64,000 nt of DNA from positions 2,368,001-2,432,000 of the forward strand of contig OZ245056.1 in NCBI GenBank assembly GCA_965224705.1. The letters run 5' to 3'. Position numbers: made by a program. Source of the stretch: Spirochaetaceae bacterium. GTDB taxonomy: Bacteria > Spirochaetota > Spirochaetia > DSM-2461. Positions 15,001 to 24,000 of the stretch are shown in pieces. Numbering within the stretch: the stretch's first letter is position 1; each line of letters starts with the position of its first letter.

Positions 15001-18000
15001 CAGTGGTGACTGGAATGAAGTTGGTGGAATGGTTGAACGATATGATTGGAGTGGAGAGTATTGGAAGTTAATCAGGAAAGAAGATGCATCGTATAAAATT
15101 GTATGGGATGGGGAAAAGAATCTGTATGATGAGAATGGAAATCTTCTTTCCATTGATACAACGGATTCCTATGCCCTGAGTCTTTCAAAATACCTGGGGT
15201 TAGCCAGAACAAATGACTGGCGCAGGGCGGCAGTTCTATTGACGGATAAGGGTGTCAATATAAACAAAGAACGAAATGGATACGTACAGAGCCGTGAGCA
15301 TCGGCAGGAAAATGGTCGGTTGGGTCTGGATGAAATACTCTCTTTCAATGTGGGAAGCAAGAGGCAGGGAGAAATCGATTCCTACCTGTCATCCCGTAAG
15401 CAATACATAAATAAATACAATATGTGGGATATGGTCAATCTTGATGGCAGGTTGTCGAAAATTGGAGGAAAACATGTCCGGAACAGAGCTGAAAGAGCTC
15501 GGATTGACTTCTATCAGGATGTCGCTTCGAATCCTGAGAATCTATGGAAAATGAGAGGAAATTCCCTGACCAATCCTGTGCAGACAGTTGAAGATGGTCA
15601 GGAGACCTATATTACTGTTGCAGACAGGTATAATTATACGGATGAAGCCGGTGTTCATTACAACGGAATCCATAGGGTTTTATTCAGCGAAAACAAAGCT
15701 GTGGATATTGGGAGTCAGGGAATATCCAGCCCGGTATTCACAATCGGCCCTACCACCTTCATGCGTCCGCGATGGCAAAACGTTGACAAAAAAGACTCCG
15801 GATATGGATATTTTGCATCAGGTTTGAGTCGTAACTTCGGATTTATATCAGGTCACTTGAATGATAATAACAGTATTCAGAAGGATTTAGATCATTTATT
15901 TGATAATGCGGACCAGGCGGGATTTAATGTTGTTCAACTACCTGATTACACTTCCTATGGGATGACCGGAACTACCGGGAACTCCACAGCCATACATCTT
16001 CATTATGAGGTAGGCCATTATGACACTATGTATGAGCGTTTGCGGAAGTGGCTGCCTTAGAGCCTGTCGGACTTACGTCTCACGGCTCAATTTTTGCCCT
16101 TCTCTCCAGAAGCAAGCCTCCTGCTTGCTTCTGGAGAGCCGCCTTCGTTTTCTCGCTATCGCTCGGCACTCTCTCAGGATGCGAGTCCATAGACTCGCAT
16201 ACCCTGCTGCTGCGTTGCCAAAATACTCACGCAGCCCAGCTACGCTTAAGTTTTTGTCGCCTTGCATCAGGAAGAAATCATCAAAAATCGCCTCAAAGCC
16301 TTAAAGTCCGACAGACTCCTCAGGAGATGCGGGTCGAATCTGCTGTTCGAGTTATGGGCAATTCGGGGGGTTCCCCCCAGGGCCTGGGATTGGTACACTA
16401 ATCATCCTAGGAGCCTGTCGAACTTCCGCCTTGCGGCGCAAAGTCTTAAAGTCCGACAGACTCCTGGAAGTGATATTATGGATCAAATTACACAACTTGA
16501 AAGTCTTGGTATTCATATACTTCGGGAAGCATATGCTAATTTCACCAATCTCTGTATGCTGTGGTCAATTGGAAAAGACTCGACAGTACTCCTGTGGTTA
16601 GCCCGCAAGGCCTTCCATGGTCATGTTCCTTTTCCCCTGGTTCACATTGATACGCATTACAAGATTCCTGAGATGATTGAATACAGGGACAGGCTTACCC
16701 GTGAGTGGCATCTGCCAATGGTTTACGGCGAGAACAGGGCCGCTCTTGAAGCCCGGCAAACCTTTCCCGATGGCAATGTCGACCGTATCACCTGCTGTCG
16801 TCTGCTCAAGTCAGAAGCTCTCAGGAATACTCTGAACGGCACATGGCCGCGGTATCGATACAATCATCAGGATGGTGAGTACCAGGTGGACAGGGATACG
16901 GAGGCCTACACCGGAGTCATTGTGGGGGTAAGATCGGATGAGGAGGGATCCCGGTCCAAAGAAAGATACTTCTCTCCCCGGGATACGGAGAATATCTGGG
17001 AGGTGGAAGATCAACCTCCAGAGTTCTGGAACCAGTTCAAAACAGATTTTGCTCCGAATACTCATATCCGTATTCATCCCCTGCTGGATTGGACTGAAAC
17101 GAATATCTGGGAATACATAGAACGTGAATCCATTGCAACTGTTTCCCTCTACTACGATCAGGGAGATGGCCGACGGTACAGATCCCTGGGGTGTGGACCC
17201 TGTACCCATGCGGTGAAATCCGGCGCAAAAAACGTTCAGGACATCATCACTGAATTGAAGTCAGGTCAATTCTCAAATATTGCCGAGCGTTCAGGACGGG
17301 CCCAGGACAAAGAAGATGGCGGGGGACTGGAAACACTTCGCCGTGAAGGTTACATGTAGTGACCGAACAGATGAATGTGGTTATCACTGGCCATGTTGAC
17401 CACGGAAAGAGTACTGTAATCGGTCGTTTGATGGCGGATACAGGCAGTTTACCGGATGGAAAACTCGAGCAGGTACAGGCTTCATGCCGCCGGAACTCAA
17501 AACCCTTTGAATATGCGTTCCTCCTGGATGCCCTCAAAGATGAACAGAGCCAGGGCATAACCATTGATTCGGCCCGGGTCTTCTTCAACACCAAGAAGCG
17601 TCACTACATCATAATTGACGCCCCCGGTCATATTGAATTCCTCAAAAACATGGTGACAGGAGCATCCAGGGCGGAAGCTGCCTTTCTCTGCATTGATGCT
17701 CATGAAGGAGTGCAGGAAAACTCCAAACGGCATGGGTACCTCCTATCCATGCTTGGAATCAAGCAGATATGTGTTCTGGTGAACAAGATGGATCTTGTAA
17801 ACTACGATTCCAGAACCTTCAAATCCGTTGTTCGGAAGTTTTCCCGGTTCCTACGGAATATCAATATGAGAAATGTTCCGTTTATACCGGTTTCCGGCAT
17901 GAACGGAGATAATATTACAACCATCAGCCAGGCAATGCCATGGTGGGATGGCCATACAGTTCTTTCCCTCATTGATTCATTTCAGAAGGAAGAGATTCCA

Positions 18001-21000: not shown

Positions 21001-24000
21001 AACCCATGGTCCGGTTTTTTCGTCACAATGATATGAATGATCTGGAATCGGTACTTGGCAGTGTCAACAAAAACCGTAAGGGCGGGGTGATGATATTGAT
21101 CGAAGGTGTCTACGGAATGACTGGAGACCTGGCTGATCTTCGGAATATTACAATGCTGGCAGAAAAGTACAGTGCCCGTATATTCATTGATGATGCCCAT
21201 GGCATTGGAGTTATGGGTAATCAGGGTCGAGGTACGGCTGATTTCTTTGGTGTCCAGGAGAAAATTGACATTTATTTTGGCACATTTGCGAAAACATTTG
21301 CTTCTATCGGGGGGTATGCGGCTACAAGCACTCAGGTTCGGGACTGGATTGCCTTCAATGCTCGAACTCAGGTCTTTGCCAAAGCCCTTCCCATGGTCTA
21401 TGTTAAATCCCTTCAAGTTGCCCTCAAGAAGGTTATCAATGGAAATGACAGACGTGCTGTCATGTGGGAACGTTCCAACCGATTAAAGAATGGTCTTCGA
21501 GAACTGGGCTGTCATATCGGTTCTGGTGAATCCCCCATATGTGCTGTTTACATTCCTGCCGGGGAAAGTCTGGAAGAACTGATCAAAAAAGTTCTCACCT
21601 ATCTGAGAAGAAATGGAGTTTTCTGCACAGGAGTTATCTGGCCCGTCATTCCCCCGGGGATTGTGATGCTTCGAATGATTCCAACTGCCGCTCATACAGA
21701 AGAACACGTGGCTGAAACAGTTGAAGTATTTAGACGAATGCGGGAAGACTTGCATGTGAAGTTTTCTCTGGCTGAAGAGGAAATTGCCAAAGTTGATAAA
21801 ATATACAGGAAGGGAGCTTTATAAAAAGGCCCAGGCTCCCAGGAATCTACAGGGAGAGAGTTTACCGGCGGCCGGACTTGAACCGGCACGGCACATGTGC
21901 CAGCAGATTTTAAGTCTGCTGTGTCTACCTATTCCACCACGCCGGCTGCATATGTCATCTTAATCGTGCCCATGGGTTGGGTCAACGGTGAATCATATGT
22001 TAGAATAATCTGGAAGGAGAATAATAATGAGTATCAAAATTCTCGACAATATCAAACCGGGTGTTGTCTACGGAAATGATTTAAAAAGACTGTTTGAAAT
22101 TTGTAAGAGTCAGGGGTTTGCTCTTCCGGCAGTGAATTGTGTCAATACTGAATCAGTTAATGGTGCACTTGAAGCAGCTGCCAGAGTTAATTCACCTGTT
22201 ATTATCCAGTTCTCCAATGGGGGATCAACGTTTTTTGCCGGGAAGGGTCTTAAACCCGCCAGGGGCCGGGCCGATGTCATTGGAGGTATTGCTGCTGCCA
22301 ATCACATCCATCATGTTGCGGAGGCCTATGGTATTCCCGTTGTTCTTCACACAGATCATTGTGCGAAGAAGCTGCTGCCATGGCTGGATGGACTGCTGGA
22401 TGCCGGTGAAGAGTTTTACAAGGAAAAGGGTCGGCCGCTTTACAGCTCTCACATGCTTGATCTCTCGGAAGAACCCATTGAAGAGAATGTGAGGATTTCC
22501 GGTGAGTATCTCAGGCGTTTAAGTTCTCTGGATATGTATCTTGAAATGGAACTGGGTATCACTGGCGGTGAAGAAGATGGTGTTGATAACTCGGATAGAG
22601 ATCCAGCCGATCTGTACTCAAAACCTGAGGAAATTGATTATGCCTATACCGAACTGAATAAAATCAGTCCCAATTTCACCATAGCGGCGGCATTCGGTAA
22701 TGTGCATGGGGTGTACAAACCAGGAAATGTCAAACTGACACCGGCCATTCTTGATCAAGGGCAGAAGTATATAGTCCGTAAACACAATCTGACCAATCCT
22801 CATCCAGTCACCTATGTATTTCATGGCGGTTCAGGTTCTTCCCAGGATGAAATCCGCAGAAGTATTGAATACGGTGTGGTGAAAATGAACATTGATACCG
22901 ATACTCAATGGGCGACATGGACAGGAGTGCTGAATTTCTATAAGGAAAACGAAGCTTTTCTGCAGAGCCAGTTGGGGAATCCCAATGGTGCCGATGCACC
23001 GAATAAGAAATACTATGATCCAAGAGTCTGGCTCAGAAAAGGCCAGGAAACGCTGGTGGCTCGTATCATTGAAGCATTCGAAAGCCTCAACGCTGCAGGG
23101 CGTAATTAGAGTCATTGCTCATTAGAATTGATTCCCCATTTCATGGACAGATCGAAAAACTGTTACCTTCCCTGTAGAATTATCGATTCCCATTTTCATG
23201 CTCTACACATGAGAAAAAGAGGAATGAATCTTACGGAAATTTTTCGCACTGCATTTTCCAATGGCCTGACAGGGGCCATAGATGTTGCAGTCAATGAGAA
23301 CGATTTTGATGAGCGCCTTGGATTCTCCAATGAATTTGAACTGATCAAGCTTTCGGCCGGTATTCATCCCCTATCATCGGCCAGCGATGGAAAAACAACA
23401 TGGCATGAACGTTTCGAAGTGATCCGGGAACAGGCCAGGCACCCCGATGTTGTGGCAGTTGGGGAAAGCGGACTTGATTTCTACAGGGATCATGTACCGG
23501 TCAGGGTGCAGAAAATGGCATTCAGGGAGCACCTGGATCTGGCTTCAGAACTCAACAAGCCAATAATCATTCATAACCGGGAAGCTGACAGGGATATTTT
23601 GGAACTGGTCAGAGGATCTTCCTGCCGCAGGGGTGTATTTCATTGTTTCTCATCCAACAGGGAAACGGCTGAGCAGGCCCTGGAACTGGGATATTACATA
23701 TCCCTGGCGGGAAACCTCACATACAGGAAGATGGGGATACTTCATGAGGCTGTCAGGATCATTCCCAGGGACAGAATACTTATCGAAACAGATTCGCCTT
23801 ATCTGGCTCCGCAGCATGTAAGAAGGCAGAATAATCATCCTGGATTCATTGGGTATACACTGGAATATCTTGCAGAATTAAGAGGAGAAGACCCCGGGGA
23901 ACTGGCACAGAGCATCAGAGACAATACTCAAAGATTATTCTCAATAGAACCTTAGAGGCAGGTAAATGGAAACCTCAGTTCCTTTCTTGACGGCACTCTG

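Follow-up and report, generated by a model that had tools for sequence, protein, structure and literature searches.

Sulfonolipids are outer-membrane lipids that, according to PMC11211663 and PMC11525784, also act as signals in Bacteroidota and are tied to gliding motility, choanoflagellate multicellular development and TLR4-linked gut effects. They have so far been assigned to Bacteroidota and close kin; the locus described here belongs to a marine spirochaete. Does it encode a route from sulfate to the sulfonolipid base? The initial annotation proposed this, noting that such lipids are regarded as belonging to Bacteroidota, and we found no report of sulfonolipids in Spirochaetota in the literature searched. 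We computed gene content, family membership, signature residues, synteny and co-occurrence, and consider it very probable that cysD-cysN(CysC*)-capA-capB provides a dedicated route from sulfate to the sulfonolipid base.

Gene organization

Within the window (the whole 64,000-nt stretch of DNA analysed), four ORFs on the + strand were called at 16262-17359, 17359-19155, 19152-20444 and 20535-21824. They are co-directional and overlap or nearly abut, with the family matches claimed for them earlier. cysD and cysN overlap by 1 nt (TAGTG) and cysN and capA by 4 nt (ATGA), while a spacer of 90 nt separates capA from capB, with GGAG ahead of the capB ATG. The TTG start at 16262 first given for cysD is probably wrong. 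A repeat of ~290 bp lies around it (the stretch 16060-16325 has at least 140 genomic copies), and the ATG at 16478 gives a CysD of normal length. Because the first 216 bases of the longer ORF fall in the repeat, the start is most likely 16478. The features are:

16478..17359, + strand, cysD, small subunit of sulfate adenylyltransferase, 293 aa (NF003587, start candidates, protein length)
17359..19155, + strand, cysN, GTPase subunit of ATP sulfurylase, fused to an apparently degenerate APS-kinase-like C-terminal domain (TIGR02034, PF01583)
19152..20444, + strand, capA, cysteate synthase (O-phosphoserine + sulfite to cysteate; TIGR03844, PDB 9k3c)
20535..21824, + strand, capB, predicted capB/sulA-type cysteate-C-fatty-acyltransferase (CFAT; cysteate + acyl thioester to 3-ketocapnine + CO2; PDB matches, signature residues, two trees)
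21863..21946, - strand, tRNA-Leu(taa), 3' boundary of the operon and outside the system (ARAGORN; Rfam RF00005, 58.8 bits)

The operon ends at this minus-strand tRNA gene, and the downstream fba and tatD are excluded from it.

Sulfate activation and cysteate synthesis

CysD matched NF003587 with 327.7 bits (cut-off 195). Its gene is the only CysD-type PAPS_reduct gene of the genome, the sole other PAPS_reduct protein being CysH. CysN scored 337.1 bits against TIGR02034 (cut-off 336.1). The second gene had been called a cysN/cysC fusion, and an APS-kinase-like domain is indeed fused to CysN, but this domain lacks Walker A. Residues 451–560 gave a weak match to PF01583 (APS_kinase, 35.2 bits), and the score against the bifunctional CysN/CysC model NF004035 was 425.4 bits, below the cut-off of 715. 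A catalytic APS kinase domain carries a Walker A P-loop. The motif GxxxxGK[ST] was absent from the C-terminal domain both here and in the eight orthologues aligned there (9 sequences), and the only Walker A of CysN is the N-terminal GHVDHGKS. The alignment had 12 rows, including this gene (L001), a close relative (L138) and one row covering residues 3–411 only (L052). The APS-kinase-like domain thus appears degenerate, and since it lacks Walker A, CysD/CysN probably deliver APS and not PAPS.

CapA reached 458.8 bits against the equivalog model TIGR03844 (cut-off 324.9), while threonine synthase models gave at most 73.8 bits. In the PDB sequence search its residues 3–429 aligned with 9k3c, 'Cysteate synthase', at 8.1e-152. 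These two matches bear out the earlier assignment of the third gene as a cysteate synthase.

CapB is a predicted CFAT-type enzyme

CapB is an alpha-oxoamine synthase (AOS) and contains PF00155 (126.5 bits). In the PDB sequence search its matches to the CFAT 28eh (4.7e-96) and to SulA 7u7h (9.5e-95) came ahead of those to the serine palmitoyltransferases (SPTs) 3a2b and 8guh (~4e-62), the same E-values as previously reported. One alternative is that CapB uses a short or unusual acyl donor, its product being a soluble sulfonated aminoketone or natural-product precursor, or only free capnine, and not the N-acylated membrane sulfonolipid of the Bacteroidota type. This is unlikely. Among the nearest non-spirochaete relatives of CapB are FAAL-ACP-AOS fusions with three domains, an architecture typical of secondary-metabolite-like assembly, a separate AOS of the genome sits within a KS/HMG-CoA-synthase/ECH cluster, and no conserved neighbour gene pointed to a capnine N-acyltransferase. 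CapB itself, however, is a stand-alone protein of normal length (429 aa) whose alignment to lipid-making CFATs runs from one end to the other, and the gene clusters of relatives contain a BCKDH-FabH fusion and an LptC-like gene. Free capnine is, moreover, itself a known end product of the capnine pathway according to passages of PMC11211663.

The residues around the active site bear on the choice between cysteate and serine. Re-reading of the alignment bore out that 12 of the 15 residues around the PLP-cysteate adduct are identical to 28eh, the changes being Phe113 to Tyr, Ala82 to Ser and Met277 to Val. Over the 18 tabulated pocket residues CapB matches 28eh at 15, and all CFAT-specific ones are retained. 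The three changes fall within natural CFAT variation: among the 73 Bacteroidota/Balneolota/Chlorobiota rows, Tyr113 occurs in 43 and Ser82 in 4, and position 277 is Ile, Thr, Met or Val. CFATs and SPTs differ in the 113–115 region and at Cys141, Glu187, Phe245 and Ala249, as set out in parts of PMC13692747; CapB has Y113-G114-Y115, C141, E190, F248 and A252, which is the CFAT state. In our alignment of 129 rows, it was also in the CFAT state at the positions that separate CFATs from other AOS (Y/F113, Y115, C141, E187, A249, and K280). The same holds for all 24 rows of the spirochaete clade, except at position 141, where 18 rows have Cys and 6 have Ser.

K253 of CapB aligns with the catalytic Lys250 of CO-CFAT and is Lys in all 129 rows. 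K283 corresponds to CFAT K280 and to SulA Lys281; it is Lys in 24/24 spirochaete-clade and 73/73 Bacteroidota-type rows and mostly Ala, Asn or Thr in other AOS rows. Lys281, which comes from the neighbouring protomer and is Ala in Spt, is named in passages of PMC9304779 as the key residue telling SulA from Spt. The two AOS paralogues of the genome (L004 and L005) have the non-CFAT state at most signature positions and fall outside the CFAT clade; one AOS paralogue is Kbl, adjoining Tdh.

Phylogenetic trees built with FastTree (129 rows) and IQ-TREE in quick mode (67 rows) agreed. Both place CapB in a CFAT superclade apart from SPT, Kbl and BioF (support 99 with FastTree and 98 by SH-aLRT in IQ-TREE). 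This superclade comprises a Bacteroidota and Balneolota clade (99), with congeners of the characterised producers Alistipes, Algoriphagus, and Chryseobacterium, and a spirochaete clade (99) with CapB. The clade of CapB appears as sister to the Bacteroidota/Balneolota CFATs, the trees settling membership of the superclade and not the order of the sub-clades.

That the AOS is instead a palmitoyltransferase for serine or another amino acid, making sphingoid bases while cysteate has its fate elsewhere, is very improbable. Sequence gives no certain AOS specificity, and CapB reaches no NCBIfam cut-off, its top match by E-value being the CFB-group SPT model at 277.5 bits, far under the cut-off of 640. 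Yet every residue that discriminates CFATs from SPTs is in the CFAT state, the CFATs in the PDB outscore the SPTs by about 110 bits, capA adjoins capB, and no capB occurred without capA in a sample of 401 Spirochaetota genomes. According to parts of PMC13692747, CFATs could not be engineered to use serine even by broad substitutions, a variant with 19 substitutions being unfolded; the determinants of CFAT substrate choice are therefore incompletely understood. The residues and trees support CapB as a CFAT-type enzyme, with cysteate as the predicted substrate.

Synteny and co-occurrence of capA and capB

Of the seven highest-ranked related loci within the spirochaete clade (five titled Spirochaet-, one WOR-3 MAG, and one uncultured bacterium), five have capA directly upstream of capB, as do 8 of 10 fetched relatives. 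Four loci of the phylum sample had the order cysN-capA-capB (three) or capA-capB (one). Only the WOR-3 MAG locus had a GNAT gene near capA. Among the 401 sampled Spirochaetota genomes, 25 had capA and 23 had capB, with both in 23 and neither in 376. In 41 relatives, both genes were present in 18, neither in 19, and four were discordant, three of these being 71–74% complete. One near-complete relative, G433 (95%, one contig), lacks capA while carrying capB, and its VOC gene is split. Among the named relatives of the proteins are symbionts of marine invertebrates. Two RNA libraries of one study contain contigs that match cysN, capA, and capB with 0–1 mismatches, a weak hint of expression, as such contigs may contain DNA.

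It is likewise most improbable that cysteate itself is the end product (e.g., used as an osmolyte, exported, converted to taurine, sulfolactate or coenzyme M, or made as a sulfite sink) next to an incidental AOS. In favour of this reading, cysteate synthase first became known through coenzyme M synthesis in methanogens, the control for TIGR03844 matched only Methanosarcina, and in family f19 the cysteate synthase gene did not adjoin capB in 17 fetched loci. Against it, capB was present elsewhere in 5/5 f19 genomes tested and in 15/17 in the sample, the genome yielded no sulfopyruvate decarboxylase, and the operon makes its own sulfite supply and so is not detoxifying sulfite.

Other pathway genes in the genome

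The sulfite on which the four operon genes depend has to be supplied by an APS reductase encoded elsewhere. An APS reductase gene (cysH) of the iron-sulfur type was found at C1:1663217-1664254, 720 kb from the operon. Its product scored 251.1 bits against TIGR02055 (cut-off 235.3) and has CC at 214, CAPC at 304, ECGLH at 331, and an N-terminal CxxC extension; CC...CxxC and ECGLH motifs mark this type of enzyme. In the relative G416 cysH immediately follows capB, and the cluster also contains a BCKDH-E1/lipoyl/FabH fusion, a connection to the initiation of fatty-acid synthesis. SerC is encoded in the genome, and no NIR_SIR sulfite reductase was found in it; a search of it for sulfate importers gave no SulP and no CysT/W above cut-off. 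The presence of APS reductase and SerC without sulfite reductase or sulfopyruvate decarboxylase fits a dedicated route, and the sulfate branch seems to go no further than the sulfite used for cysteate.

Four congeners (G401, G405, G407, and G412) have the order SDR-cysD-cysN-capA-capB. Because it opens the same operon there, the SDR is by synteny a strong candidate for the 3-ketocapnine reductase. The SDR gene of this genome lies at C1:388537-389343, unlinked to the operon. Of the 73 Bacteroidota-type loci, 7 have a homologue (34–42% identical, one 29%) beside capB, among them a locus of an Alistipes MAG. At E<=1e-40 the SDR was found in 15 of 20 capB-positive relatives, and 3 of its 18 holders lacked capB. 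Several unrelated SDRs reduce 3-ketocapnine in vitro, as reported in passages of PMC11211663.

A two-domain VOC metalloenzyme-like protein is encoded at C1:1159417-1160496. In Spirochaetota and in a sample of Bacteroidales it is nearly restricted to genomes with capB, which its gene often adjoins, and the Alistipes MAG (L082) has the order VOC-sulA-SDR. We found no mention of it in the sulfonolipid papers retrieved and propose that it may be a co-inherited accessory of the pathway. Tentatively, this protein of the glyoxalase/dioxygenase fold could be an unrecognised sulfonolipid accessory enzyme common to Spirochaetota, Bacteroidales, and probably Rhodothermota, acting on the alpha-amino-ketone intermediate or the finished base, e.g., as an isomerase, epimerase or lyase that needs no oxygen. 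In that case, spirochaetes living with marine hosts would produce a modified sulfonolipid, starting from sulfate, via a lipid-only pathway branch. The SDR, cysH, and VOC genes are dispersed in this genome and are tied to the operon only via homology to relatives.

Proposed pathway

The reading as a sulfate-to-capnine module is supported by family cut-offs, CFAT signature residues, the trees, capA-capB adjacency, and co-occurrence, and the operon would be a cysteate-making and cysteate-condensing module fed by sulfate activation. The substrates, the order of the steps, the role of the SDR, and the production of any lipid are predictions from sequence. CysD/CysN would convert sulfate to APS, with the CysC-like domain non-catalytic, and the unlinked APS reductase would reduce APS to sulfite. 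From sulfite and O-phosphoserine (via SerC) CapA would form L-cysteate, which CapB would condense with a long-chain acyl-ACP or acyl-CoA to 3-ketocapnine. The four operon genes alone reach this compound and no further; its reduction to capnine would most likely be carried out by the SDR.

If several spirochaete families carry the pathway as an operon that is complete in itself and fed by sulfate, a second phylum, unrelated to the first, would join the producers. Such an operon would also explain the source of sulfite for cysteate and would be a well-defined set of genes for rebuilding the pathway in a heterologous host. Steps deemed scattered or unknown in the Bacteroidota literature gain concrete candidates in the CFAT-linked VOC protein and the SDR encoded in the operon.

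Comparison with known systems

The first two enzymes are the same as in the CapA/CapB/CapC pathway of Capnocytophaga ochracea and Ornithobacterium rhinotracheale (28eh; described in parts of PMC13692747 and PMC11211663), and an SDR reductase step is expected in the spirochaete too. CapB, however, has ~39% identity to 28eh and 37–42% to Bacteroidota-type loci and falls in a separate clade, and the spirochaete genes, in another phylum, are joined with sulfate activation in one operon. capA and capB are adjacent in the spirochaete, whereas of the 73 Bacteroidota/Balneolota/Chlorobiota loci one has a clear capA within 7 kb of capB. SulA of Alistipes finegoldii (7u7h; parts of PMC9304779) is the second CFAT match of CapB, which has the Lys281 equivalent, and the VOC-sulA-SDR order of the Alistipes MAG contains the same three families that co-travel in spirochaetes. 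Unlike in the spirochaete operon, the source of sulfite or cysteate is not encoded beside sulA in Alistipes.

With the SPTs (Sphingobacterium multivorum 3a2b/8guh and Sphingomonas 2jg2) CapB has in common the fold-type I PLP AOS scaffold, the catalytic Lys and the PLP-contacting His and Asp, but SPT-like rows have Thr/Ser113, Ser141, Asp187, Ser249, and Ala280 where CapB has Tyr, Cys, Glu, Ala, and Lys. Assimilatory sulfate reduction by CysDN(C)-CysH-CysIJ shares CysD, CysN, and the APS-reductase-type CysH; here the genome yielded no sulfite reductase, the CysC-like domain is without Walker A and sulfate activation is placed inside a lipid operon. Finally, outside the spirochaetes CapB is closest to the C-terminal AOS domain of the FAAL-ACP-AOS fusions P0122–P0124 (50% identity for P0122; one 90%-identity cluster includes a Rhodothermaceae MAG protein), but it is without their acyl-activating and carrier domains. 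P0122 lies inside the spirochaete clade, and P0123 and P0124 belong to the same CFAT superclade.

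Organization and boundaries of the operon

The four co-directional genes described in the initial annotation, for CysD, CysN, cysteate synthase and an alpha-oxoamine synthase (AOS), are borne out by open reading frames and family matches:

16262–17359, + strand: cysD (NF003587, 327.7 bits against a cut-off of 195)
17359–19155, + strand: cysN with a weak C-terminal APS_kinase match (TIGR02034, 337.1 against 336.1)
19152–20444, + strand: capA, cysteate synthase (TIGR03844 equivalog, 458.8 against 324.9)
20535–21824, + strand: capB, AOS, below every NCBIfam cut-off
21863–21946, − strand: tRNA-Leu(taa)

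The junctions of the set are operon-like, with overlaps of 1 nt and 4 nt followed by a 90-nt gap in which GGAG precedes the ATG. The tRNA gene closes the operon on its 3′ side, and the downstream fba and tatD are separate. In a PDB sequence search the capA product matched 9k3c (“Cysteate synthase”) at 8.1e-152.

The start of cysD had been placed at 16262. This TTG falls within a repeated element of ≈290 bp (16060–16325), and an in-frame ATG at 16478 gives a CysD of 293 aa; we therefore take 16478 as the start. The element has at least 140 copies across the 3.0-Mb genome, with 74–86% identity over the listed 24 best matches, and shows very high contig depth and many internal joints in metagenome runs. 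It lies between cysD and an open reading frame of 3796 aa (4670–16060, + strand) directly 5′ of the operon, for which no Pfam family was found at E ≤ 0.001, and occupies the place where congeners carry a short-chain reductase (SDR) gene. Further downstream, a histidine kinase gene with an N-terminal cyclic-nucleotide-binding domain (23941–25128, − strand) adjoins a gene for the flagellar sheath protein FlaA (25194–25955, − strand), in keeping with a spirochaete origin.

A search for leader RNAs with Rfam (E ≤ 0.1, 15800–22200) returned the tRNA, one sub-threshold snoRNA-like match and nothing else. Promoter-like sites were not in excess (7 against 7.4 in shuffled sequences); terminator-like sites were about two standard deviations more frequent than in shuffles (11 against 5.8, sd 2.6), with none at an operon boundary. 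Contigs match cysN, capA and capB with 0–1 mismatches in two metatranscriptome libraries that carry the label mollusc metagenome and come from one study. As such libraries can contain DNA, this is at most a weak hint that the three genes are expressed.

CapB has the residues of cysteate-C-fatty-acyltransferases

The PDB figures first reported for the AOS were reproduced: 4.7e-96 for the cysteate-C-fatty-acyltransferase (CFAT) 28eh, 9.5e-95 for SulA (7u7h) and 3.9e-62 for the serine palmitoyltransferase 3a2b. Pocket residues described in sections 7, 10, 11, and 12 of PMC13692747 were placed by hand on the alignment of CapB with 28eh, whose numbering is used here. Asn52, Gly81, Gly114, Tyr115, His139, Cys141, Glu187, Asp216, His219, Phe245, Thr247, Ala249, Lys250, Phe278, and Lys280 are identical in the two proteins, and the same alignment confirmed the three known differences (Phe113 to Tyr, Ala82 to Ser and Met277 to Val). 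Tyr113 also occurs in 43 of 73 Bacteroidota, Balneolota, and Chlorobiota rows among the best 80 of at least 592 relatives, and the three differences are ordinary CFAT variation.

Positions 113, 115, 141, 187, 249, and 280 separate CFAT-type proteins from other AOS in an alignment of 129 sequences, where the group of other AOS (28 rows) is slightly blurred by three proteins (P0125, P0130, and P0142) that the tree places among Bacteroidota CFATs. CapB has the CFAT state at each of these positions. So do all 24 rows of its clade, except at position 141, where 18 rows have Cys and 6 have Ser.

Two AOS paralogues were considered as alternative CFATs and rejected. The first is a Kbl beside Tdh (threonine dehydrogenase) and has non-CFAT states. 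The second is without the CFAT residues and lies in a polyketide-like cluster (coordinates beginning with C1 refer to the whole genome):

C1:614939–623812: FabD-KS-FabG-HMGS-ECH-ECH-SDR-AOS-FabZ

This is a second lipid or polyketide-like cluster, in which the AOS is of the BioF/Kbl family, HMGS is HMG-CoA-synthase-like and ECH is enoyl-CoA-hydratase-like.

Phylogeny of CapB

At least 592 relatives of the capB locus were confirmed, and the 80 best entered the analysis. Going by their titles, these comprise 5 Spirochaet-, 1 WOR-3, 1 uncultured bacterium, 2 Chlorobiota, 3 Balneolota, and 68 Bacteroidota entries. A FastTree phylogeny of 129 rows was built from these 80, the loci from genome searches and 29 cluster representatives, after removal of tblastn segments shorter than 330 residues and of the loci belonging to the window itself. 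An IQ-TREE quick search used 67 of the 129 rows, the 62 omitted being near-duplicates and extra outgroups.

Both trees recover a CFAT superclade (support 99 in FastTree, SH-aLRT 98 in IQ-TREE). It includes a Bacteroidota and Balneolota clade with sequences from Alistipes, Algoriphagus, and Chryseobacterium, as well as a spirochaete clade (99), to which the WOR-3 metagenome-assembled genome (MAG) and the uncultured bacterium belong too. Also in the spirochaete clade is the AOS domain from one FAAL-ACP-AOS fusion; a Rhodothermaceae MAG protein belongs to the 90%-identity cluster of this fusion. Two more fusion proteins fall inside the superclade. These tri-domain proteins (P0122, P0123, and P0124; FAAL is an AMP-binding domain) are 1049–1127 aa long and carry, outside the spirochaetes, the AOS domains most closely related to CapB. 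Neither tree settles the branching order among the groups of the superclade, and we infer no donor or direction of transfer.

Distribution and order of capA and capB

Of 401 Spirochaetota genomes, sampled evenly (thresholds E ≤ 1e-40 for capA and E ≤ 1e-95 for capB-type genes), 25 have capA, 23 have capB and 376 have neither. All 23 genomes with capB also have capA, and the two with capA only are 88–89% complete. One family (f19) has capA in 17/17 and capB in 15/17 genomes, with the genes unlinked. Among 41 close relatives, 18 have both genes and 19 neither; capA alone was found in two genomes (73–74% complete). Two others have capB alone: one is 71% complete, the other is G433, a single-contig genome with 95% completeness. 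In the genus of the window, 12 of 13 other species carry capB. All of these counts overstate the number of independent events, since the genomes are related. At its capB locus (L135, C1:1318000–1332000 in G433's own coordinates) G433 has a gene for a two-domain glyoxalase/VOC-fold protein (VOC) that matches in two pieces, and cysteate synthase was not found at E ≤ 1e-40. The pathway may be decaying or differently supplied in this genome.

The gene capA lies directly 5′ of capB in 8 of 10 fetched relatives and in four loci of the phylum sample (three cysN-capA-capB and one capA-capB).

In one full-text collection, searches on sulfonolipids and on cysteate synthase in spirochaetes turned up no paper on spirochaete sulfonolipids, judged by title or abstract. 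As far as the parts consulted go, PMC11052126 has Treponema denticola among the organisms studied and reports ceramide sulfonates for Porphyromonas, Prevotella, and Candida. PMC11525784, a gut screen, covers 21 phyla by loose homology; the string “Spirochaet” was not found in its eight supplementary files available in text form.

Sulfate activation and sulfite supply

The second gene had been annotated as a cysN/cysC fusion. The weak C-terminal APS_kinase match stands, but the domain is without the Walker A and Asp-rich motifs that we take to be those of APS kinases, here and in eight orthologues aligned over that domain. L001 in this alignment is the window gene itself, and a Chlorobiota sequence (L052), aligned over residues 3–411 only, is uninformative on the C-terminal domain. 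The sole P-loop in the fusion is that of the GTPase. Given a C-terminal domain without kinase motifs, the module should yield APS, not PAPS.

Only two genes in the genome have a PAPS_reduct domain, the cysD of the operon and C1:1663217–1664254. The latter scores above the cut-off of the APS-reductase model TIGR02055 (251.1 against 235.3) and has CC, CxxC, and ECGLH motifs, presumably of the APS-reductase type, plus a CxxC in an N-terminal extension. A NIR_SIR sulfite reductase was not found in the genome (95% complete, single contig), and neither was a sulfate importer (no SulP, no CysT/W above cut-off). SerC is present as a source of O-phosphoserine. Read most simply, the activation and reduction of sulfate would end at sulfite, and this sulfite would be destined for cysteate. 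In the relative G416 cysH is immediately 3′ of capB, and one Spirochaetaceae MAG has a CysH-like gene just 5′ of capA. A coenzyme M route was rejected, as the alpha subunit of sulfopyruvate decarboxylase was not found in the genome.

Elsewhere in the genome, a threonine-synthase-like frame with one in-frame TGA (L002, C1:1676687–1677838) scores 66 bits to TIGR03844. It lies ≈7 kb from a molybdopterin-dependent oxidoreductase matching the model Se_sel_red_Mo (TIGR03313).

Candidate 3-ketocapnine reductase and a possible link to fatty-acid priming

The capnine-type operon travels with an SDR and the VOC protein. Four congeners (G401, G405, G407, and G412) have the order SDR-cysD-cysN-capA-capB. 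The window genome has its SDR orthologue elsewhere (C1:388537–389343, 54–58% identical to those of the four congeners by tblastn), and its closest relative, G409, is likewise without an SDR gene upstream of cysD. SDR homologs (34–42% identical, one 29%) adjoin capB in 7 of 73 Bacteroidota-type loci among the best 80 of at least 592 relatives, including an Alistipes MAG, and in one Spirochaetaceae MAG the SDR gene adjoins the VOC gene, divergent from capA. At E ≤ 1e-40 the SDR was found in 15/20 capB-positive and 3/21 capB-negative relatives. Because of its place beside cap genes in congeners and other loci, the SDR is the best candidate for the 3-ketocapnine reductase. Its PDB matches were generic lipophilic SDRs only, and PMC11211663 shows in vitro reduction of 3-ketocapnine by a scattered set of several SDRs.

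The cap cluster of G416 also has, flanked by cysH and the VOC gene, a gene (L137:10137–13511) for a 1124-aa protein in which E1 alpha and beta of branched-chain keto-acid dehydrogenase (BCKDH) are fused with a lipoyl domain and FabH. The fusion, which fits iso-branched fatty-acid priming, was not found in the window genome.

A VOC protein associated with capB

The VOC gene of the window genome (C1:1159417–1160496) encodes ≈355 aa with two Glyoxalase/VOC domains. In many spirochaete loci and in the WOR-3 MAG it lies tail to tail with capB or otherwise next to it. Among the 41 relatives, 19 have both VOC and capB, one has capB without VOC, two have VOC without capB and 19 have neither; the three discordant genomes are all 71–74% complete. 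Of the two species sampled in genus g156, one has capA, capB and VOC, and the other has none of the three. In the Spirochaetota sample 19 of 401 genomes have VOC, all within the 25 capA-positive ones.

Proteins 53–57% identical are named by their sources as Saprospiraceae, Marivirga, Flavobacteriales, and Rhodothermaceae. We also sampled 141 Bacteroidales genomes, the order around the Alistipes MAG, in which CFAT-type was defined as a best E ≤ 1e-85, a threshold set after the gap in E-values was seen. VOC is present in 48 of these genomes and 46 of the 48 have a CFAT-type capB, that is 46/109 CFAT-positive against 2/32 CFAT-negative genomes (Fisher p = 9e-5, kinship ignored). The Alistipes MAG, with the order VOC-capB-SDR, and five further genomes in this sample have VOC and capB side by side. 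A universal sulfonolipid enzyme can be rejected: VOC was not found in 63 of the 109 CFAT-positive Bacteroidales genomes, in the near-complete cap-positive spirochaete genomes G196, G241, and G276, or in one Algoriphagus and one Chryseobacterium genome. Its absence from the searches of the last two leads us to regard VOC as accessory, not core.

The AlphaFold model of VOC is confident (pLDDT 93.5) and nearest to PcpA, 3oaj, 1zsw, maize glyoxalase I, and GLOD4 (VIA Z 20–25, 12–15% identity), matches that establish a two-domain VOC fold and leave the function undefined. HPPD and hydroxymandelate synthase were rejected (Foldseek TM only ≈0.3), and there was no NCBIfam match at 1e-8. Gln9, Glu71, Glu309, and Glu312 are invariant in the family and Gln10 and His258 nearly so, a set that presumably resembles the metal site of glyoxalase I (Gln/Glu/His/Glu). 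Gut Bacteroidales are strict anaerobes. Since VOC adjoins sulA in them, we consider an oxygen-independent reaction of the isomerase or lyase type more probable than the chemistry of a ring-cleaving dioxygenase. No paper tying a glyoxalase-family protein to sulfonolipids was found in one full-text collection, and glyoxalase is not mentioned in PMC11211663.

Comparison with known sulfonolipid loci

The operon is real, and judged from its sequence the interpretation given in the initial annotation is well supported in silico. Its layout differs from that of Bacteroidota-type loci. Among the best 80 of at least 592 relatives, a clear capA within 7 kb of capB was found in only 1 of 73 Bacteroidota, Balneolota, and Chlorobiota loci, whereas five of the seven spirochaete-clade loci (the seven being five Spirochaet- entries, the WOR-3 MAG and the uncultured bacterium) have capA directly 5′ of capB. 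The most fitting description of the operon is a variant form of the known capnine pathway that occurs in a new phylum and is packaged with its own sulfate-to-sulfite supply.
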